From: a virus
IMG/VR virus record: IMGVR_UViG_3300028047_000001
Reading direction: 5' to 3' (one strand)
Length of the DNA: 42,844 nucleotides
Shown here: positions 135 to 42,844 of the stretch, piece by piece
Layout of the letters: the number at the start of each line of letters is the position of its first letter
Numbering within the stretch: position 1 is the first letter of the stretch
Program-made: the position numbers and the translations under genes
The notes under the pieces: generated by a model
What the model saw: only the letters and a program-made list of their open reading frames with translations
What the model was told of the DNA's origin: nothing
The model's database searches: none

Positions 135-629
135 CTATTTAATCGTCCAGTTGACCACGCCGCCGACTGCGCCATTGGTTGCGTCGGCCAAAGGCTCACC
201 GCCGGTAATGCAAAATCCGATGCCATTCACGACCGATGCGCTGAGCGAGCCGAGATTTGGTGCAAAGCTTCCGGCCACGTTGGAGCCAACGCCGGGCAGA
301 ATATACACACCGATTTGGCCAGGCAGAGCCCCGGCAACTGGCGTTGCGGCGAGGTCGTAGAGGTGCAGGAACATGTTTGTCGCAGCGATATTTTGCAGGG
401 ACACTTCAATGATTTGGTGTGCACTTGGGATAGCGATTGTGCCGCAATTAGTCGAGACGGTAGTGAGTGTTACGAATTTCTGGCCGCCCTGAAAAACGCC
501 GCCGGATTGAGCATGGGCGCCAGGGTTGCTGAACCATGTCCCGTAGGCCGCTATGGCCACCCATACGGCCATCATGACTGGCATGAATGATTTTGTCAGA
601 TATTTCAAGCTCTTGCTCCTGCGGCCCAC
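135..629 (-). CDS. Exported protein of unknown function (Sec-type signal peptide)
   Basis: 164-aa ORF with hydrophobic segment MPVMMAVWVAIAAYG and an AHA|QS cleavage-like site, followed by Gly/Val/Ser-rich beta-type sequence. The real start may be the internal Met at about 584. It is the last gene before the TerS-like gene across the circle junction. Confidence 0.55.
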   Translation of the reverse strand: MGRRSKSLKYLTKSFMPVMMAVWVAIAAYGTWFSNPGAHAQSGGVFQGGQKFVTLTTVSTNCGTIAIPSAHQIIEVSLQNIAATNMFLHLYDLAATPVAGALPGQIGVYILPGVGSNVAGSFAPNLGSLSASVVNGIGFCITGGEPLADATNGAVGGVVNWTIK

Positions 630-684
630 AGCGCCGCCCCGACCAGGATTGCGGCCAGAATTGCACCGAATAGTGCGATGCGGA

Positions 685-1158
685 TCATTTTTCAGGTTCT
701 ACTCGCTTCGGTTCGGTTTGTAAACCCAGTTTTTTTGGCCATCCTTTGGCCTGCGAATCCAGCGGTCCTGATGACCTTGTCCAGTCCCTGATTTTTGGCG
801 GCGAAGAGCCCCGTGGAATAGCCCTTAGCCCAGCCACCAAGTCCTTGAATTCATTCGTGATTTTCTCGCGCTCATCGCCTGAAATATCAGGCTCCGGCAA
901 CTGCGGAAGCAGTGGATATCCTCGGACAGCAGACTTGAACGCTGCTTGGTAGATTTCGCCAACCGAGGGAAGAAAACCTTTCGAGCCAATCTCACCCTTC
1001 GCCGCTCTAGAGCAGGCATCGATTACTCGATGCGGCGGTAGCAAGCCAAGCACCTCCCAATAAACCTCAAACTTGAGCTTTCTCTCAGTCTCGGTCCCGG
1101 TCAAATTGTAGCATTGAAACAATTTTAGGATCGCTTTCTTCGCGTCTTCGTTTGTCAT
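685..1158 (-). CDS. Replication-module protein, helicase loader/inhibitor (G39P-like) candidate
   Basis: 157-aa ORF directly downstream of the initiator-like gene. The N-terminal pattern KKAILKLFQCYNL...KFEVYWEVLGLL...FLPSVGEIYQAA resembles phage helicase-loader proteins. It overlaps the upstream ORF by 74 nt. Confidence 0.4.
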   Translation of the reverse strand: MTNEDAKKAILKLFQCYNLTGTETERKLKFEVYWEVLGLLPPHRVIDACSRAAKGEIGSKGFLPSVGEIYQAAFKSAVRGYPLLPQLPEPDISGDEREKITNEFKDLVAGLRAIPRGSSPPKIRDWTRSSGPLDSQAKGWPKKLGLQTEPKRVEPEK

Positions 1159-1858
1159 CCTCTATGTCCTTAAGCACTGATTTCACAAAGCCTTCGTTCC
1201 CGTTTGAGCGCCCATTGCCGCCATTCGGTTCGAACTTTCCGACGTTTCGGACCCATGTCCGCCAGGCGGCATGCCAGTCCGCGAACAGTGAACGGTTTTT
1301 GAGGTGGTGGTCTCGAAACTGAGCCCACTCGTGTTTAGTCTGGCTTACGCTTAACCCTGAATCATGAGCAAAACCCAAGTCAAACGGGTGAGGGCCATCG
1401 TCGGAAGCGATTTCGGTTTTTGGTTTTGGTTTTTTGACAATAGCGATAGCTATTGGTTTTATCTTTCTTTCTTTCTTATCTTCTCTCTTCTCTTCTGGGG
1501 CGTTCGGTTGCGTTCGTTTGCGTTCGTTTCTCCACGCTTTCGCTCTAGCTGCGCTTCCATCCTCCCGTAATGGTTGACGTTTCTCCCACGACTTCAAGCG
1601 ATTGTTTAAGATTATCTTGCCTTCCATGGCCTGCCTAATTGCCCTCACTTCGGCCTCTTTCATGTCCATCGCAGCGCCAACATCCTCATCGTCCCAACCT
1701 ATGAGTTCGCCTGCGTTCGGTTGCGTTCGCGATGCGCAAATGAGCATGAAATTGAAGACGGCGATAACCTCCGGAATGGGCCGCCCAGCCTTTTTAGCCA
1801 CAGTCCGCCATTTCGGGTCTGACGGCATATCCTCCCATAGGCGCACCCAGTTGGTCAT
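1085..1858 (-). CDS. Replication initiator / replisome-organiser-like protein
   Basis: 257-aa ORF whose N-terminus (NWVRLWEDMPSDPKWRTVAKKAG...) resembles phage replisome-organiser wHTH domains, followed by a Lys/Glu-rich linker. The gene contains iterons and a T-rich tract (see ori feature). Its start overlaps the upstream stop as ATGA. Confidence 0.5.
   Translation of the reverse strand: MTNWVRLWEDMPSDPKWRTVAKKAGRPIPEVIAVFNFMLICASRTQPNAGELIGWDDEDVGAAMDMKEAEVRAIRQAMEGKIILNNRLKSWEKRQPLREDGSAARAKAWRNERKRTQPNAPEEKREDKKERKIKPIAIAIVKKPKPKTEIASDDGPHPFDLGFAHDSGLSVSQTKHEWAQFRDHHLKNRSLFADWHAAWRTWVRNVGKFEPNGGNGRSNGNEGFVKSVLKDIEDDKRRREESDPKIVSMLQFDRDRD
1411..1732. other. Putative origin of replication embedded in the initiator gene
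   Basis: Tandem 10-mers GCGTTCGGTT GCGTTCGTTT GCGTTCGTTT at 1500-1529, and GCGTTCGGTT GCGTTCGCGA at 1713-1732. Palindrome CAATAGC-GATA-GCTATTG at 1438-1455. T-rich / polypyrimidine tract at 1411-1499. Confidence 0.5.
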
Positions 1859-2442
1859 GCCACCATCCCCCTCGTCTCCAGCAGCTCCATGAAATACCCG
1901 GTAGGCGCCCCGTTACGCCTCCATTCGGCCCTAATCTGGCCCAATCCAGGCGCGAACCACATCTTGGCGCCATCGATCCTACCGCCTCCCCATTGCTGCC
2001 CGTAAGTCAGGACCAGAACCTCCATGAATGTCCCCGCCTTTGTTTCGTAAAACGGAATAATCTCATGGAATATTATAACCTGCGACCCATATTGGCCGAA
2101 CAATCCGGACGTCTCACACTGGCGGACTATAGTCGTACCAGTCTGCTCATTCCCGCCCCATTCAATCTCTTTCCCTGGTACACACGACACTTCACGAGCG
2201 TACTGCCATGGCCAGTTATACCACTTAGGAGGATAGTCATCGCGGTACTCGAGTACACCACGAATTGGATCTATCCGGTAGTACCAATCGCAATCCCATT
2301 TTAATTTGATTCTCTGGCGGAGGCGGAATCCGTCATAATAATCGCGAGTGTATGTCTGGATTATTCTACTGGAGAAGTAATTTGTAATAGTGTGTCCCTG
2401 CTTTGGTTGCGGCCAGTATATCCTTGCGTCAAAATGACTCAT
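1855..2442 (-). CDS. Hypothetical Trp/Tyr-rich protein (orphan)
   Basis: 195-aa ORF coupled on both sides by ATGA overlaps (2439-2442 and 1855-1858). It looks visibly more AT-rich than its neighbours and has aromatic clusters (WDCDWYYRIDP, PPKWYNWPWQYA). No family recognised. Confidence 0.6.
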   Translation of the reverse strand: MSHFDARIYWPQPKQGHTITNYFSSRIIQTYTRDYYDGFRLRQRIKLKWDCDWYYRIDPIRGVLEYRDDYPPKWYNWPWQYAREVSCVPGKEIEWGGNEQTGTTIVRQCETSGLFGQYGSQVIIFHEIIPFYETKAGTFMEVLVLTYGQQWGGGRIDGAKMWFAPGLGQIRAEWRRNGAPTGYFMELLETRGMVA

Positions 2443-36145: not shown

Positions 36146-36368
36146 TCAGGCCACCATATCCAAATCGCAAACAAGGCAAACATCAGCATTGGCAGGACAT
36201 AATCCATTACATGGACCGCCGGCTAGCGAAACCGGTCCTCCGCATTGCGGCGTGCACGCTCACACTACGGTCCATTCACTTTACCCCCATAATCAGAATC
36301 GCCATGACTAGAATTAGCCCTTCAATGATAGCAACTGGGATCGCGATGAAATAGCAAAAGTGTTTCAT
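36142..36368 (-). other. Chain of three translationally coupled micro-ORFs (30, 22 and 21 aa)
   Basis: 36276-36368 encodes MKHFCYFIAIPVAIIEGLILVMAILIMGVK, with its ATG overlapping the portal stop. 36207-36275 encodes MDRSVSVHAAMRRTGFASRRSM. 36142-36207 encodes MDYVLPMLMFALFAIWIWWPE, with TAATG and ATGA junctions. Confidence 0.35.
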
Positions 36369-38677
36369 TCTCCCTGCCCTGGCAATGGCGCGTAATGGCC
36401 CTCAGGAAGCGCGGGGGGCGGCTCGGACTGCGGCTGGTTAGATTCACCAGGATTGCCCGTCGCAGCTGGTCCTTGTCCTCCTGAGGGGGTTGACGGCGGG
36501 GAAGAAGCTGAACTTGAAAGATCGCCTTCCCCGCCGTCATTGCCAGAACCTGCGGGGGTCGAGGCCGCAAGTCCGGCAGTTCCGCCATGCAAATGCTTGT
36601 CGATGTCGGTCAATGCCATATCCACATTACCGATCCAAGCGTGAAGCTTGGCGCTATCGATCGGGGGCCCGGCGGCCGTCATAGCCGCCTGCACTTCAAC
36701 CGTAGCCTTGACGTTCTGTAATCTTTGATATTCCAGCTTGAGCTTTTCCAACTCGACCTCGTATACGGCTTTTGCGGCATGCCCTTGCGCTTGTGCCTGG
36801 TGGCCTTGCGCAGTAGCCATTTCGCCCTGTGCCTTGGCCATTTCCGTCTTCATTTGCATCTCATGCAGAGGATTTGGCGGCGGAGGCTGCGGCGGAGGAT
36901 GATTGTGCCGCTTCGCTAGGATCTGCTGGACCTGCGGCGGCGCCAGAGTGGTAAGTAACTCCGTAATGAGATCCGAATTGGGCCAATCCTGCAAATCGGC
37001 CATGACAGGAGCAAGTACGGGCGCAGAAGGAGGAAATGCCGTAACAAACGACGTAATGCCCTCTCTGGCCTCTTCCCGCTTTGTCGCATAGCTCGGCCCA
37101 ATCTCCATCTGCACATCATAGGCGCCAGTGGTCATGTCGTTCAGCATGTCGATTGCAACGCCTTCGATCGCCACCCCCTGGGGCTGATTGATCGGCACAC
37201 GCTTCTCAGTGCCATCTACTCCGATGACGCGAACCGTGCGCGATGTATCGTAATAGTGCGGTAGGAGATCATTAAGTATCCGCGCCGTATGCATGATCGA
37301 TAGGGCGAAATTGTCCATGTAAACGAACGTGCCCGTATCGCCCTGCTTCTCCCGCTTTTGGATTGCAGTGCCGCTAATCTCATTGCTCTTCGCGCCAAGG
37401 CTCGCGTTGTAGATCCCGATAACCGCCTGCATGTCCTGCTCGGCCATAACAACACATTCCGTAAGTCCCGAACCAGAGGCTGGCGGATTTTGTCTTTGCG
37501 GCGGTGCATTCCCATTTCTTGGATCCGGCTTGTATCTCAAAAACGGCCAGTTCTTGACATTGGCCGTGTTCCATTCATTCTCGTAATCCTTAAAGTTGTC
37601 CTCCGTACCGATAAAGGGTGCCTTTGGCTGCAAGCCAACAAACTCCGTTTGTGTGGAGCGGGCATAATTGTAAGCACGCTGTGGGTCCGCCGCGAACCTG
37701 ACAATGCCATGCCTGACGACCTTTGCTCCAACACGGACCTCTTCGCCAATTACCGGCACAACGGGAATAAACCGTCCCGGCCAATCCTCCGGTTCGCTTA
37801 TGAATTCCACCGCATTCATCATTCGCCATTTTATCTTATGCCCTGCTTTCTCAACTACCTTGCCGCCCTCGGCCTTCATGCGGGCAATGTCATCACGATC
37901 AGCGTCGGTCAGATCCTCGTAGCCGCCGTTCGGCATTTTCATTAGCTTGCGCTTGGTTTTCACCTTGTACCAATAGCGCGCGACCCGAATTAACTCATCG
38001 CGAAACCATTCCATGTTGAGGGAGTTGGTGCCGAGATCGCCAGTGGGATAGCCGGGAAATGTCTCGAGATACGCCTCCCGCGTCATATCTACGGGCGTAA
38101 AGCACCACATTGCGTCTCTACGCGTCGGATGTTTTGCATCTGGGTCCCACATAACCGAAATTTGATCGTCAATGAGCCGTACCCCGAGTTCCTGCTCAAA
38201 TGTGCTGTCATCGGCATATTCGCTAAACACTTCCCAGTGCCCGATACCAGCTGCAACCTGCGAGTCCGCCGCGGCGGTATATATTCGCGATGCATCTGAC
38301 CGATTCTCAATGTATCTGATGAGCCCACTCTTTATCTCCGCGATTTTCTCGTCGGCGCCGTCGTCGCAGGGAACCACTTTAATAGAGGGCCGCATTTGTC
38401 GCATGTCGCCCGTAACTTGTCGTTGGAACTGTCCCATCCGATTGAACATGAGGACAGGTCTTGAATCAGCCTCGCGCTGCAATCTGAGATCCTCTGGCCA
38501 TTGCTCTCCAGCCAGGAATGCAAGGTCTTCGTAGCCTCGATCGATGTTATCACGCTCTTTCACCCATGCCCTGTTCCATTGCTTCATGGCCACCGCATGC
38601 TCGACCTCCTCGGCCGCTGCATGCGGATTCTCGTCCGTCTCTTTCTCTGGCGCCTCAGCGGCGTCTACATCAGCCAT
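36365..38677 (-). CDS. Portal protein, P22-like with long C-terminal helical barrel region
   Basis: 770 aa. GEQWPEDLRLQREADSRPVLMFNRMGQFQRQVTGDMRQMRPSIKVVP...GIGHWEVFSEYADDSTFEQEL is portal-like. The C-terminal ~170 aa are helical and low-complexity, as in P22 gp1. Confidence 0.8.
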   Translation of the reverse strand: MADVDAAEAPEKETDENPHAAAEEVEHAVAMKQWNRAWVKERDNIDRGYEDLAFLAGEQWPEDLRLQREADSRPVLMFNRMGQFQRQVTGDMRQMRPSIKVVPCDDGADEKIAEIKSGLIRYIENRSDASRIYTAAADSQVAAGIGHWEVFSEYADDSTFEQELGVRLIDDQISVMWDPDAKHPTRRDAMWCFTPVDMTREAYLETFPGYPTGDLGTNSLNMEWFRDELIRVARYWYKVKTKRKLMKMPNGGYEDLTDADRDDIARMKAEGGKVVEKAGHKIKWRMMNAVEFISEPEDWPGRFIPVVPVIGEEVRVGAKVVRHGIVRFAADPQRAYNYARSTQTEFVGLQPKAPFIGTEDNFKDYENEWNTANVKNWPFLRYKPDPRNGNAPPQRQNPPASGSGLTECVVMAEQDMQAVIGIYNASLGAKSNEISGTAIQKREKQGDTGTFVYMDNFALSIMHTARILNDLLPHYYDTSRTVRVIGVDGTEKRVPINQPQGVAIEGVAIDMLNDMTTGAYDVQMEIGPSYATKREEAREGITSFVTAFPPSAPVLAPVMADLQDWPNSDLITELLTTLAPPQVQQILAKRHNHPPPQPPPPNPLHEMQMKTEMAKAQGEMATAQGHQAQAQGHAAKAVYEVELEKLKLEYQRLQNVKATVEVQAAMTAAGPPIDSAKLHAWIGNVDMALTDIDKHLHGGTAGLAASTPAGSGNDGGEGDLSSSASSPPSTPSGGQGPAATGNPGESNQPQSEPPPALPEGHYAPLPGQGE

Positions 38678-39511
38678 TTATGGGCCATTCAGGTTTGCGT
38701 CGGCGACCCCGATAGATTTTCCGGAAACTGCAAACGGAGATTGTTGGATCGTAAATAGCGCCTCATCGCGTTCTTTATACCATTGACCCTGCACATAGGA
38801 ATTTAAATCGATCGGAGAATTAAACGGCGGCTGCGGGCCGACAACAGTTTGCTGCTCGAAGCCATTATAGAAAAAGACATGCGAGGATCCGCCCTGGACT
38901 GCATCGAAGTATGCGACTGGCGTCCCCCCCAGCAAACCGCCGCTACGCGCGGCGCCCACATAATAGGTCATGGTCCTCCCGCTAAATGGCAGATAGTTTG
39001 GATAATCGAGGGTTAGCGCGGAAAGATCTATCTCCTGCCGCAAATTCTCGCCCTCAATAAGGAAACTCACGTAATGCCTCGTGCCGAAGTTTGCGCGAGT
39101 GCGGAGCAAATACCATGTGTCTGGCTGAAGCCGCTGGCCAAGAGAAAAAATTGCAAAAGTGCGGAAAGTGCTTGGTGTCCCTGCCATAGTGCCGGCGGTG
39201 CCCTGCGCTACAAGTACCGCACCGTTACGCAACACGCCTACATAGGCCATCCAATCCCCGCCAGGATAAAAGAGAGGATTACTCACTCCATCCATAAATT
39301 CTTCGTCGATAAACATCAATACGTCGTCCGGCATGTCCTTGCCAAATCTCAGAAAGGCATGAACATACCCGGATACAGGAGCCGCAAGAAACTGCTCTAT
39401 ATCCGGACCTTTATTCACCAGCGCAACAGCGGCAGTAAATCTTGAATCGCGCGCCTCTACAATGCCGGCCCCGGCAATAATCGCGATGATAAATGCCAGG
39501 ATCGCCTTCAT
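38678..39511 (-). CDS. Exported beta-sandwich-like protein (accessory)
   Basis: 277 aa with a signal peptide (MKAILAFIIAIIAGAGIVEA|RD). Inserted between the terminase and portal genes, abutting both neighbours. Confidence 0.55.
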   Translation of the reverse strand: MKAILAFIIAIIAGAGIVEARDSRFTAAVALVNKGPDIEQFLAAPVSGYVHAFLRFGKDMPDDVLMFIDEEFMDGVSNPLFYPGGDWMAYVGVLRNGAVLVAQGTAGTMAGTPSTFRTFAIFSLGQRLQPDTWYLLRTRANFGTRHYVSFLIEGENLRQEIDLSALTLDYPNYLPFSGRTMTYYVGAARSGGLLGGTPVAYFDAVQGGSSHVFFYNGFEQQTVVGPQPPFNSPIDLNSYVQGQWYKERDEALFTIQQSPFAVSGKSIGVADANLNGP

Positions 39512-39883
39512 TTAGCCATCTTCCCTCAACTTCATACCATGCCGCGCGAGCCATTCCTCGATGTCGCGTATTGTCTTCTTTCCGCAATGAGGAACTCGTG
39601 AGAGTTCCCGCCGGGACATGTCCGCTATTTTCCGCATGTCATTCATTGTGAGAATGAGTGACGCGGCCCATGAATCATTCCGCGTAATATTAGAGACCAC
39701 ATTGCACGCCCTAACGGGCGTCAATGCCTCAATCTCAGGCGATGTATCTACCTCGACATAATTCACCGGATCGCGCTCAATCTCTGCCTCAACATTGAAG
39801 TCAGCGGACATGGCCTGCGCGTTGTAAAACGTTAGCAGGCCATCTTGAAGGTCGCGGCTTCCCATTATTCGCCTACTGCGCAC
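39512..39883 (-). CDS. Protein with RNA polymerase alpha-subunit C-terminal-domain-like (HhH) module
   Basis: 123 aa (GTG at 39883 or ATG at 39865). VRACNVV...MRKIADMSRRELSRVPHCGKKTIRDIEEWLARHGMKL parallels E. coli RpoA CTD (VRSANCL...[37 protein letters not shown]). Confidence 0.6.
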   Translation of the reverse strand: MRSRRIMGSRDLQDGLLTFYNAQAMSADFNVEAEIERDPVNYVEVDTSPEIEALTPVRACNVVSNITRNDSWAASLILTMNDMRKIADMSRRELSRVPHCGKKTIRDIEEWLARHGMKLREDG

Positions 39884-40646
39884 CTTGGTTGAGCTGAATC
39901 ACCCCAGCATATTCCGGAGACTGAACTAAGTCTTCACCGGTCGATGCCTTGTCACCGGTCCAGTAGGAATTATACCAGGAATTACCGTTCTGCGTGCAAT
40001 CGCTCGTTCGCGGGCTCGGCAGTGAGAATGTCATGCTCGGATCAACGCCGATGATCGCATAGAAATCATCCGGTCCGCTTCCGCCATGCTGTGCATGGAA
40101 GATTCTCACCGAGACGACCTTCATTCCTAGGCCTGTCGCCCGGTTAACTACCATGGTCAGAACTGCAGGGGTGTCTTGCACCGCGATCGGGCATGCATTG
40201 CCATGCGGCGCATTGCCGGCACTCTGGTTCATAATCACGGTGCCGCTCGGGGTCTTAACATCGAGGCCTTCCGAATGGGTGATGACCACGGTGTTAACAT
40301 TCGACTCCTTCGTGAGCGCCCAGGCGAAGAACGAATTAGCCGTCTGGGTAGCGGTGCAGTCCTGCGACGGAGGACCAGCATTCGTGCCGCACCCCTGCGA
40401 GGGACACTGCAGATCGGCATTGATCACGAAATACAAGTCTGTGCCGTTCTTAAAGATGCGCCCAGAGTGAATCGCCATGGCCTTGTTCGTGGTGGCATTC
40501 CACACTTCGGTGTGGACATTTGCACGCCCTCCGCCGATTGACACCTTAGGGCAAGTGCCTTGTGCTTGCGCGCCAACTGTGCCAAGCCCGTACCAGGCAA
40601 TAAGCCCAGCCGCCATAATCAATCCGCCGTCTACATATTTTCTCAT
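39873..40646 (-). CDS. Exported protein of unknown function (accessory)
   Basis: The track ORF starts at 40658. The ATG at 40646 overlaps the TerL-C stop (TGATG) and gives MRKYVDGGLIMAAGLIAWYGLGTVGAQA|QG. The mature part is Cys-containing. Confidence 0.55.
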   Translation of the reverse strand: MRKYVDGGLIMAAGLIAWYGLGTVGAQAQGTCPKVSIGGGRANVHTEVWNATTNKAMAIHSGRIFKNGTDLYFVINADLQCPSQGCGTNAGPPSQDCTATQTANSFFAWALTKESNVNTVVITHSEGLDVKTPSGTVIMNQSAGNAPHGNACPIAVQDTPAVLTMVVNRATGLGMKVVSVRIFHAQHGGSGPDDFYAIIGVDPSMTFSLPSPRTSDCTQNGNSWYNSYWTGDKASTGEDLVQSPEYAGVIQLNQGAQ

Positions 40647-41575
40647 CACCCCATCCATCCATGTGTTCCGCCGGCCAACCGCACACTGCGATCGCTTGGC
40701 GGCCGCTTTACATCTGCGAAACGTTTCATCATTCTAGCATATCTGCTGGCCGATAGCACGTCATCACGCTCCTTAACGATTTGGCCGTTCTTGCGATGGA
40801 ACAGCCGGAACTCGCTAAACCATACCTCATTACCGGGGAATACCCTCCAGCGGCCCGTCAGCATGCACTCGTACATATCCTGAATGCCAGCTTCCAAGCC
40901 ATAACCACCTTCCTCGTGCGTGGCATGCTCCCCAAGCATATTCAATCCGTGCCCGCGATACTGCGCTGCAAGCTGATCACCTGAGCCTTTGTCGTGTTGC
41001 AAACCATCGTGGGGCCAAGCGATGGGTACCCAGAGCCCCCAGGGCCTAAGTGCCGCCGCATGGATCGGAGCACTCGCGCCCGACTCGCGGTAGGTAGCCA
41101 CGACATAAAATATGTCGTCATCTCTGTCCCACGCGCACCTGGCGGCTGCAAACGGATGATCGTAGCCAAAATCTACTCCTATGATTTGCGGGAAATGCCT
41201 CGGAATTTCAAACGCCTCACAGCGCAGCTTATCCTCCTCCACGGGGAATACCCGGCCTGAGCCCAGAGCAGGAATGCCCTTAACCCGCGCCTCCTGTTCC
41301 CAGGCCGGATAGCTAGCGATGATAGCCGCGCGCTGTGCATCCGTGTAATGTAAGGCGTCATCGATCGTGGCTTGTATGACTACGCGGCCCGGGGAGACTG
41401 TCACTGTGCCCACTTCCATGCCATTGCATATATCAGCGGCGAGAGGATAACGAGCCAGCCGATAATAGCACCTATGACAAACATGACTAAGTCCCAGAAC
41501 GACGTCACTGGTTAAGCCGCGCTTCGGCAGTCTTGGGAAGGATGATCGGGCTAAGTTGCTGTTTATAGGCGCCAA
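40646..41575 (-). CDS. terL: Terminase large subunit, C-terminal nuclease half (split gene)
   Basis: GRVVIQATIDDALHYTD...ARVKGIPALGSGRVFP...IIGVDFGYDHPFAAARCAWDRDDDIFYVVATYRE...WPHDG matches the TerL RNaseH-like nuclease region. The first ~55 codons (TTG start in the track) look non-homologous. The first ATG is at 41419 and has no SD. Confidence 0.7.
   Translation of the reverse strand: MAPINSNLARSSFPRLPKRGLTSDVVLGLSHVCHRCYYRLARYPLAADICNGMEVGTVTVSPGRVVIQATIDDALHYTDAQRAAIIASYPAWEQEARVKGIPALGSGRVFPVEEDKLRCEAFEIPRHFPQIIGVDFGYDHPFAAARCAWDRDDDIFYVVATYRESGASAPIHAAALRPWGLWVPIAWPHDGLQHDKGSGDQLAAQYRGHGLNMLGEHATHEEGGYGLEAGIQDMYECMLTGRWRVFPGNEVWFSEFRLFHRKNGQIVKERDDVLSASRYARMMKRFADVKRPPSDRSVRLAGGTHGWMG
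41401..41484 (-). CDS. Possible 27-aa hydrophobic peptide inside the terL insert
   Basis: Below the ORF-track cutoff. Encodes MFVIGAIIGWLVILSPLIYAMAWKWAQ. Weak SD. Confidence 0.25.
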   Translation of the reverse strand: MFVIGAIIGWLVILSPLIYAMAWKWAQ

Positions 41576-41840
41576 GTAGCATTGGCGATGGTTCCGAGAT
41601 CCACATAACTGCAGCCATATTCAGCTGCACGCTTTCGCCGGCAAGAATGTTTGTTGATTTAAGAACCGGGTTCATTGTCATTTGCCCCTGCGGATCAATA
41701 CGCAGCACAGTGGGGTGCCTTAGTTCCGCCGACAGACTCTCTGGCTCCGGGCCAATAAGCTCACCGATAACATCGATCCCGCCAATCATAGTCAGTACGC
41801 AAATGCGTGATTCCGTCATGCTAATTTTATTGATCTTCAT
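41505..41840 (-). CDS. 111-aa protein encoded by the insert that splits terL (unknown; small beta-barrel/Sm-like guess)
   Basis: The ATG overlaps the TerL-N stop (ATGA at 41837-41840). The sequence ICVLTMIGGIDVIGELIG...LRHPTVLRIDPQGQMTMNPVL...VQLNMAAVMWISEP has no nuclease (HNH/GIY-YIG/LAGLIDADG) motif. Confidence 0.5.
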   Translation of the reverse strand: MKINKISMTESRICVLTMIGGIDVIGELIGPEPESLSAELRHPTVLRIDPQGQMTMNPVLKSTNILAGESVQLNMAAVMWISEPSPMLLGAYKQQLSPIILPKTAEARLNQ

Positions 41841-42541
41841 GCTCCTGCTCCCATGAATAACTCAACCACTTCGCTCCAGCCCAACAATGGCGTAAACGTC
41901 ATGTAAACGATACCGCCTGTTTCGTTCGTCCGTGTCAAACATTCGAAATACAAGTCTATATCACATTCCTCGTCGAGCCAGACAACCTCTCTCCCCGCAC
42001 CTTGGAACTTCTCGCGGCCAGACTCATACGATTTGAATTGGAGAACGGACACACCGCCAGTTGAATGCTTGACGCCAACCGTATCGATTGCATTGGCGGC
42101 GCCTCGAGCCAAGGATGGTTTGAGAATCAAATCGCCTGGGATTAGCCCAGTGCCCCAAGCCTCTTGGCGGTCCGGAGGGCCTATCAGCTTTTCCTGGACG
42201 ATGTCGCGGGTGGCGGTGTTAGTAACTCCTGCAGCCCACGCTCGTACCGGTTTATCGAAGCGCTTGCCCACCCACCATGCGGGATACAAGCCCGTAAGGT
42301 GCATGGCCATCTCTGCAGCTCCACATTCGGTCTTTCCAAAGCGGTTAGCTGCCATAATGAGCCGCTCGCGATGAGTTGCTCCTGCGGCATGAAAATCAGC
42401 TTGTTTCGGATATGGGCAGTATCGGAATAGCTTCGTGCGATCTATGCGTCTCTGACGTTCTATCAACATCTCCGCATACAATCGCTTCCTCTGCTCGTAA
42501 GTCTGCGGATAGTCGTCTAATTGTAGCGCTAAGTTCGTCAT
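41837..42541 (-). CDS. terL: Terminase large subunit, N-terminal ATPase half (split gene)
   Basis: 234 aa. YPKQADFH, Walker A (AANRFGKTECG), Walker B (VVWLDEE) and the coupling motif (YMTFTPLLGWSEVVELF). It ends in a stop where intact homologues continue into the nuclease domain. Confidence 0.75.
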   Translation of the reverse strand: MTNLALQLDDYPQTYEQRKRLYAEMLIERQRRIDRTKLFRYCPYPKQADFHAAGATHRERLIMAANRFGKTECGAAEMAMHLTGLYPAWWVGKRFDKPVRAWAAGVTNTATRDIVQEKLIGPPDRQEAWGTGLIPGDLILKPSLARGAANAIDTVGVKHSTGGVSVLQFKSYESGREKFQGAGREVVWLDEECDIDLYFECLTRTNETGGIVYMTFTPLLGWSEVVELFMGAGA

Positions 42542-42827
42542 CGTTCATACTCTCGACAACGGACACATTCACATTCACGTCTTTTGGCAGTATGGCTACT
42601 GCGGCGCGTAGATAGTCGACAGGAGACTTCTTACGTACTGCAGCGATAGCTGCTCTACCGTACTGTACCCAGTCCTCATAGAAGTCCACTGTGAAATGTT
42701 GCGCATATTGCGCCCTACTGCCACGAGGACGCCCGCCCATTCCAGTATGGCCAAGTTTAAACTGGCCTGTCGCAGAACGCTGTGGCGAGCTCGCTGGCTG
42801 GGGGGTTTTAGTTTCCGCTACGTCCAT
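42396..42827 (-). CDS. Small-terminase-like protein
   Basis: 143-aa ORF immediately upstream of terL. TGQFKLGHTGMGGRPRGSR resembles the F-x-KG-x-SGNP-GGRPKG motif of small-terminase-like (DUF5681-type) phage proteins. Its 3' 146 nt overlap the TerL-N ORF. Confidence 0.5.
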   Translation of the reverse strand: MDVAETKTPQPASSPQRSATGQFKLGHTGMGGRPRGSRAQYAQHFTVDFYEDWVQYGRAAIAAVRKKSPVDYLRAAVAILPKDVNVNVSVVESMNDDELSATIRRLSADLRAEEAIVCGDVDRTSETHRSHEAIPILPISETS

Positions 42828-42844
42828 ACCAAAAACTCGCTCAA
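42746..42844. repeat. Terminal direct repeat, copy 2 (identical to 1..99)
   Basis: See copy 1; 99/99 identical. Confidence 0.95.

Follow-up and report, generated by a model that had tools for sequence, protein, structure and literature searches.

Introduction

In the Aeromonas phage Aeh1, as Friedrich and colleagues are said to have described in PNAS in 2007, the nrdA gene is split by the free-standing HNH endonuclease gene mobE and stays unspliced. Here we describe a similar state of the large terminase gene (terL) of a soil phage, located on the minus strand of the IMG/VR virus record IMGVR_UViG_3300028047_000001 (42,844 nucleotides (nt), the whole of which was analysed and is called the window below). 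As in Aeh1 nrdA, the gene of an essential and conserved phage enzyme is cut at a conserved motif into two open reading frames (ORFs) without splicing, a free-standing endonuclease lies between the pieces (here in the relatives L071, L035 and L070), related phages have fused, intact homologs, and non-covalent reassembly of the pieces is presumed. Unlike in Aeh1, the target is the large terminase (TerL), which is cut inside the sheet of its additional-strand, conserved-glutamate (ASCE) ATPase; the split is fixed across a large clade, often with no intervening gene, and the gap in the window holds cargo other than an endonuclease.

Selfish elements also target terL in other phages, and annotation then shows two or more terL fragments, as it does here. 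The TerL genes of Pectobacterium phage CB7 (PMC7344957) and of the Jug jumbo phages (PMC12880540) carry spliced group I introns with HNH genes, and TerL inteins are found in cyanophage Mic1 (PMC7156551) and in N4-like Vibrio phages (PMC3670811). In all of these cases splicing yields one polypeptide, whereas our locus has neither ribozyme nor intein features. In its domains (Terminase_6N plus Terminase_6C) and gene order (small terminase, TerL, P22-type portal) the locus resembles P22 and Sf6 gp2 (4DKW; Sf6 gp2 4IDH), but their TerL is a single chain of 470-499 amino acids (aa) and here there are chains of 234 and 252 aa. A search of the full-text literature returned intron and intein cases only and no description of an unspliced, two-polypeptide TerL; most subscription journals were outside its reach, so novelty is unproven. 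The class of mechanism is known; what appears to be new is the target, the cut inside the ATPase sheet, the scale (a whole clade) and the gap serving as a hot spot for cargo.

Results

Anatomy of the split terminase

We consider it likely that this P22-like phage makes its large terminase as two polypeptides, encoded by two genes which stand at the ends of a chain of four cistrons:

41840..42541, minus strand: terL-N, N-terminal piece of the large terminase, 234 aa; stop codon 41837..41839
41505..41840, minus strand: ORF111, first cargo gene, 111 aa, predicted Sm/LSm fold, phrog_527 family; its ATG overlaps the terL-N stop (ATGA)
41401..41484, minus strand: second cargo gene, putative hydrophobic peptide MFVIGAIIGWLVILSPLIYAMAWKWAQ, 27 aa, ATG at 41484, stop codon 41401..41403; its TGA overlaps the terL-C start
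40649..41404, minus strand: terL-C, C-terminal piece of the large terminase, 252 aa from GTG 41404; stop codon 40646..40648

TerL-N matches positions 1-145 of 215 of Pfam Terminase_6N (E-value 5e-17) and carries the motifs of the N-terminal ASCE ATPase of Terminase_6 TerLs, namely Walker A (GKT, aa 69-71), Walker B (VVWLDEE, aa 186-192) and motif III (TFTP, aa 215-218), all of which are kept in alignments of homologs. It ends with ...TFTPLLGWSEVVELFMGAGA and a stop codon 13 residues past motif III (TFTPLLG), and shares 48-54% identity with the N-terminal half of intact phage TerLs; a sequence search of the PDB with TerL-N gave no match. Terminase_6N continues (positions 159-212) at aa 61-114 of the ORF 40646..41575(-), which also holds Terminase_6C (E-value 2e-22). 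TerL-C contains the RNase H-like nuclease domain, preceded by the last strand of the ATPase core (RVVIQA) and the lid helices; its aa 47-234 match the P22 TerL nuclease domain 4DKW with an E-value of 7e-57. The two TerL domains are not on one polypeptide, as a stop follows aa 234 and many in-frame stops lie across the gap. In the intact TerLs (470-482 aa) of Rhizobium phage RHph_N2, Microcystis phage MJing1 and Xylella phage Xfas53 only ∼4 residues separate 'VVxRF' from 'SPDR', and alignment to these three proteins, a check that a preliminary description of the locus had proposed, places 435-447 nt at this site in the window. The ORF coordinates, the Pfam matches and this alignment all agree with the preliminary description, which had TerL-N stopping after its motif and TerL resuming ∼440 nt further on; the ATG of a 111-aa ORF overlapping the terL-N stop and the 27-aa hydrophobic ORF behind it, both also described there, are seen in the sequence as well.

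For the C-half, the same description had found neither a Shine-Dalgarno (SD) sequence nor a convincing start codon, but a credible start and an SD-like stretch can be recognised. A GTG at 41404..41402 shares bases with the TGA that ends the small ORF (41403..41401), as GTGA, and is preceded, 8 nt upstream, by GGAAG; the closest relative, L012, has an ATG (in an ATGA overlap) at the homologous codon. Translated from this GTG, TerL-C begins (M)TVSPGRVVIQATIDDA..., to be compared with MTVSSGR in L012 and MTISPDR in L072, and the gene caller of the public contigs also picked GTG 41404, giving 252 aa. Along the chain terL-N, ORF111, hydrophobic ORF and terL-C the successive stop/start overlaps are thus ATGA, GTGA and GTGA, and a scan of the insert found no minus-strand terminator-like sites between the four cistrons and promoter-like sites not above chance. 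The four cistrons would therefore be expected to be translated as one coupled chain via their overlapping stop and start codons.

That the two halves share one reading frame with many stops in between, as described previously, is confirmed. The shared frame is a coincidence, because the halves of L012 are in different frames. L012 is 78% identical to the window in the N-half and 86% in the C-half, and the ratios of nonsynonymous to synonymous substitution rates (dN/dS) between the two are 0.114 and 0.042, respectively (dS >1.5). Both halves have been under strong purifying selection since the window and L012 diverged, with the split already present in both. The locus has the make-up of 'genes in pieces': a conserved motif marks the point at which a conserved, essential gene is divided into two ORFs, and relatives carry fused alleles.

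An assembly artefact is ruled out because the identical arrangement occurs in at least five independent soil metagenome assemblies, the 42.8-kb genome having been recovered from several samples. Identical ORF111 with both flanking TerL parts is present in ERZ28653699, ERZ923645, ERZ28654884 and ERZ923608; the contig in ERZ27255994 stops just past ORF111, which is there flanked by TerL-N alone.

Position of the cut in the fold

The preliminary description placed the cut between the ATPase and nuclease halves of the enzyme. However, Terminase_6N spans both pieces and the 4DKW nuclease domain aligns only from TerL-C residue 47, which puts the cut inside the ATPase domain. We examined its position in an AlphaFold2 (AF2) model of an artificial end-to-end fusion of the window halves, built from an alignment of N-halves and six read-through homologs. 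The predicted local distance difference test score (pLDDT) is 85-98 across the N-half and >80 on both sides of the junction; the nuclease part is unreliable (thin alignment). In order along the chain, the model has a strand (59-64) leading into the P-loop GKT, the Walker B strand (186-190), a strand (211-216) leading into TFTP, a helix (224-230), the low-confidence junction (233-235), a strand contributed by the C-half (241-246, RVVIQA, pLDDT ∼83) and two helices. Its best structural match is the TerL ATPase domain of Thermus phage P74-26 (250-258 residues) with 272-278 aligned columns, more than the 234 aa of the N-half, so the match must include C-half residues. In the ASCE topology the strand that follows motif III adjoins the P-loop strand, and the cut is for this reason inside the ATPase core, between motif III and the next core strand, and not at the ATPase/nuclease boundary.

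If the model is right, TerL-C must donate this strand and the lid in trans. TerL-N would supply most of the ATPase core, with strands beta1-beta4, Walker A, Walker B and motif III, and TerL-C would add the final core strand together with the lid helices and the nuclease domain. Non-covalent complementation of the two fragments would then rebuild an active enzyme, with no need for RNA or protein splicing.

The split across the clade

TerL-N was searched against 5.8 billion proteins, and the best 120 cluster representatives of ∼1,700 matches were examined (57-100% identity). About 113 of these 120 end 11-29 aa past motif III, mostly 12-13, and many of them sit on contigs of 20-70 kb. What had been described as a one-off insert into an intact gene is hence the normal state in a large clade, most representatives ending at the same position. 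The alternative that the natural TerL of this clade has a stop-free linker, which would have made the window the exception, does not hold either, as the cut in the closest relatives falls at the same residue.

The cut site is read through in only six of the 120 best representatives. Three of these six (P0109, P0111 and P0113) have scrambled C-termini and P0050 looks alike, as expected for decaying prophage copies. P0109, P0111 and P0113 are 58-59% identical to the window N-half, and were found on a bacterial contig of 439 kb and with 176 member sequences. This suggests that decaying prophage copies of the fused TerL are widespread in bacterial genomes.

To compare the junctions, 48 viral contigs and five metagenome contigs were analysed by tblastn and translation of the junction, and the following arrangements were found between the halves:

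L013 and L017: ATGA overlap
L036: GTGA overlap
L014: out-of-frame overlap
L030: 15-nt spacer
L018: 34-aa ORF
L058 (distant relative): 36-aa hydrophobic ORF, unrelated to the window peptide
L033: 59-aa Cys-rich ORF
L068: 67-aa ORF
L012: 74-aa ORF (unrelated to ORF111) plus a hydrophobic peptide
L072: 115-aa ORF
L071: 150-aa HNH_3 endonuclease, E-value 1e-13
L035: 323-aa HNH endonuclease, above the Pfam cut-off
L070: NUMOD4 ORF at the contig end, E-value 9e-7
L051: 4736..5761, minus strand, 341-aa HNH-like ORF on the strand opposite to terL
L069: about 1450..1950, fragment of a serine resolvase/invertase (PF00239, E-value 2e-9)

The gap ranges from -7 to >1000 nt. In L013, L017 and L036 the halves are in different frames and the C-frame has stops 1-5 codons upstream of its start; such out-of-frame, overlapping halves mean that splicing and frameshifting cannot be the general route of expression. 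The resolvase fragment of L069, a 77%-identical relative, is apparently a pseudogene remnant. In L051, transcription of terL-C must cross an antisense gene or start anew.

An approximate neighbour-joining (NJ) tree of the joined halves groups the window with L012, L013, L014, L018 and L017 as a single split clade; a second clade, in which the C-halves share only ∼30% identity with that of the window, has further split lineages interleaved with fused ones. The split is not of recent date but the inherited, normal state of a large clade of uncultivated phages, and the cargo alone is specific to the phage of the window.

The hosts of this clade are probably Alphaproteobacteria, to which the presence of TerL relatives in alphaproteobacterial metagenome-assembled genomes (Rhodospirillaceae, Stellaceae) points. 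On contig L005, identical to the window, DUF7220 and GcrA-like genes lie at 163..657, on the far side of the small terminase region.

Cargo in the gap

The window gap genes carry no nuclease domain, in keeping with the preliminary description, which saw no homing-endonuclease motif in the insert; free-standing homing endonucleases are found at the same site in L071, L035 and L070. Pfam gave no significant match for ORF111 or for the hydrophobic peptide. In PHROG, ORF111 matches phrog_527 (function unknown) with an E-value of 2.4e-6. A word-indexed search returned a single relative of ORF111, and the family, ∼27 cluster representatives of 100-124 aa, emerged with a full HMMER profile search. 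With a reduced alignment of the family there was no match among the metagenome contigs, and the one match among the viral contigs (L060) was a false positive, a Gp49-like protein.

Structure prediction for the 111-aa protein, also proposed earlier, gave an AF2 model with a pLDDT of 85.8 and the bent five-stranded beta-barrel of the Sm fold. Its top Foldseek match in the PDB is 3BY7, annotated 'Sm/LSm-like RNA-binding protein' (E-value 1e-5, target-normalised TM-score (TMt) 0.81-0.84), followed by spliceosomal Sm/Lsm chains, and the top BFVD matches are cyanophage Sm-like proteins. ORF111 resembles 3BY7 (ocean metagenome, cyanophage/GOS) and the phage Sm-like proteins of phrog_527 in predicted fold, in its profile-level match and in length (about 90-120 aa), but it is only about 15-30% identical to them, and the location inside a split terL is unique to the phage of the window. 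All other split relatives examined, L012 included, lack ORF111. Its closest homolog, P0002 (39% identity), occupies 59..358 of contig L004, 13 nt upstream of a complete TerL gene at 372..1694. This TerL is of another family; P0002 has the usual position of a small terminase and the contig ends 58 nt upstream. Family members in L061 and L062 are in early regions, directly upstream of a DUF3799 gene, and the one in cyanophage S-H34 is near replication genes. Its distribution suggests that ORF111 is an accessory gene that floats between contexts; a connection with packaging is possible, if weakly supported.

The putative gene for the hydrophobic peptide is the weakest part of the model. The peptide would have 35 aa if begun at GTG 41508, a start that overlaps the ORF111 stop, and L012 has a positional counterpart of 29 aa with a similar hydrophobic sequence (∼33% identity). 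DNA homology between the window and L012 extends up to the last terL-N codons, is lost over ORF111, weak in the peptide and strong again from the terL-C start, the pattern to be expected if a cassette lying between the two genes had been replaced. Flanking repeats, direct or inverted, that could be transposon-like ends were searched for, and only chance matches of 10-12 nt turned up. The gap acts as a cargo hot spot in the late operon, where homing endonucleases and small genes come and go, and the two genes it holds in the window are best read as passengers and not as parts of the terminase.

Neighbouring genes

On either side of the split gene lie the following, all on the minus strand:

42396..42827, minus strand: probable small terminase ORF, 143 aa, overlapping the terL-N start by 146 nt; phrog_8771, E-value 2e-8
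38678..40658, minus strand: three ORFs between terL-C and the portal gene
36365..38677, minus strand: P22-type portal (PF16510 P22_portal on an identical contig), 82% identical to the L012 portal

The same overlap with the TerL gene occurs in Xfas53 (gp30) and RHph_N2, and the 143-aa ORF is kept upstream of terL-N in L012, L072, L071, L013 and L018; it is probably the small terminase, a function assigned by position. The three ORFs that precede the portal encode 261 aa (hydrophobic N-terminus), 123 aa (weak HhH/RNAP-alpha-CTD match) and 277 aa (N-terminus resembling a signal peptide). The portal of L068 and L072 is within about 50-100 nt of terL-C, and in L012 the distance is only ∼460 nt, including a 37-aa remnant of the 123-aa ORF. 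This region appears to be a second place in the late operon where cargo genes gather.

Discussion

The large terminase of this phage is encoded by two conserved ORFs, and their products would reassemble into one enzyme. Of the three explanations offered in the preliminary description, the two-polypeptide terminase is supported; an intron finds no support from Rfam, folding or the relatives, and what was taken for an unusual reinitiation would be ordinary translational coupling via overlapping stop and start codons. The split would most likely have originated in an intron-less invasion by a homing endonuclease beside the conserved motif III coding sequence, after which it would have become fixed and the endonuclease would have been lost or replaced.

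Several observations weigh against this account or limit it. The window itself has no homing endonuclease, so the origin is argued from its relatives. The fused TerL of L015 is nested within the split clade in the NJ tree, and fused read-through forms exist at 59-68% identity (P0050, P0115). As fused and split lineages are intermixed in this tree, the site was split or re-fused several times, and the history includes re-fusions or several independent splits. For the window alone, there is a small chance of a non-canonical ribozyme that Rfam lacks. The AF2 model was built on an artificial fusion and with a shallow alignment of the C-half, and the separate translation and physical reassembly of the halves are steps that we infer.

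The split could also be adaptive in itself. TerL would then be a heterodimer whose ATPase sheet is completed in trans, allowing the motor core and the lid-nuclease module to be dosed or regulated separately, with the gap genes, here those of an Sm-like, putatively RNA-binding protein and a membrane peptide, tied to terminase expression or to the timing of packaging. We regard this as unlikely. It is also improbable that the gap genes work with the split terminase, for example as an RNA chaperone that sets the ratio of N- to C-half translation or as a timing factor for packaging or lysis. The tight coupling of the four cistrons would fit such a role, as would the position of P0002 13 nt upstream of an unrelated TerL in L004 and the recurrence of small hydrophobic peptides at the site in L012 and L058; however, ORF111 is missing from all other split relatives examined, distant members of its family are found in the early or replication regions of L061, L062 and cyanophage S-H34, the peptide is only ∼33% identical between the window and L012, and many relatives have no gap genes at all.

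If instead the ∼440-nt insert were a self-splicing, group I-like intron with ORFs of its own, splicing would restore a single terL frame, as the shared frame of the window halves would allow and as the introns with HNH genes in other phage TerL genes might lead one to expect (PMC7344957; PMC12880540). We consider this very improbable. A scan of 40400..42844 with the models of Rfam 15, intron models having been suggested for this purpose before, gave at E≤10 no intron family and only an unrelated long non-coding RNA (E-value 1.1), and a scan of the whole window at gathering thresholds gave zero matches. The minimum free energy of the insert RNA (-131 kcal/mol) is less stable than the mean of dinucleotide shuffles (-144; z = +2.29), and the insert is almost wholly coding. 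In L012 the halves are in different frames, and L013, L017 and L036 are split by overlapping stop and start codons with no intervening sequence, which shows that the split state works without splicing. Finally, terL-C opens with a conserved start codon and a purine-rich, Shine-Dalgarno-like stretch upstream of it.

The halves could also be joined during translation, to give some full-length TerL, by read-through, by programmed frameshifting or by long-range bypassing of the T4 gene 60 kind. The overlapping or adjacent ORFs in different frames in the relatives superficially resemble frameshift sites and the window halves are in frame, but this route is hardly credible given gaps of -7 to >1000 nt that hold conserved genes, one of them on the opposite strand (L051), a frameshift window in L013, L017 and L036 of only 1-5 codons with no slippery heptamer, and the many N-frame stops across the 435-nt gap of the window. 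Scarcely more plausible is that an insertion has inactivated terL in a phage that is defective or decaying: decaying copies do exist, as the scrambled C-termini of fused relatives in bacterial genomes (P0109, P0111, P0113) attest, but here both halves are intact with all catalytic motifs and a dN/dS of 0.04-0.11, the same split recurs in >100 diverged lineages, on contigs of phage size that have an intact portal gene, and an identical 42.8-kb genome is present in several samples. An intein was rejected, since a stop ends terL-N, the insert holds three separate ORFs and ORF111 is an Sm-like barrel and not a Hint domain; for a split intein, the 5 and 3 extra residues that the pieces carry at the cut are too short.

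With a terminase made from two genes remaining the preferred reading, the locus is not a unique oddity but a natural split of the packaging motor, unreported and experimentally tractable. TerL is the hallmark gene of tailed phages, and structural studies, phylogenies and automated phage detection all take it to be a motor of one chain; split phages, which give half-length matches and 'truncated' calls, will be mishandled in annotation and in trees based on TerL. The terL gap, as a cargo hot spot of the late operon, is useful for finding new accessory genes. The split clade offers a ready-made, natural case of fragment complementation for studying how the ATPase core, lid and nuclease communicate, and suggests that homing endonucleases can permanently remodel even the essential terL without introns.

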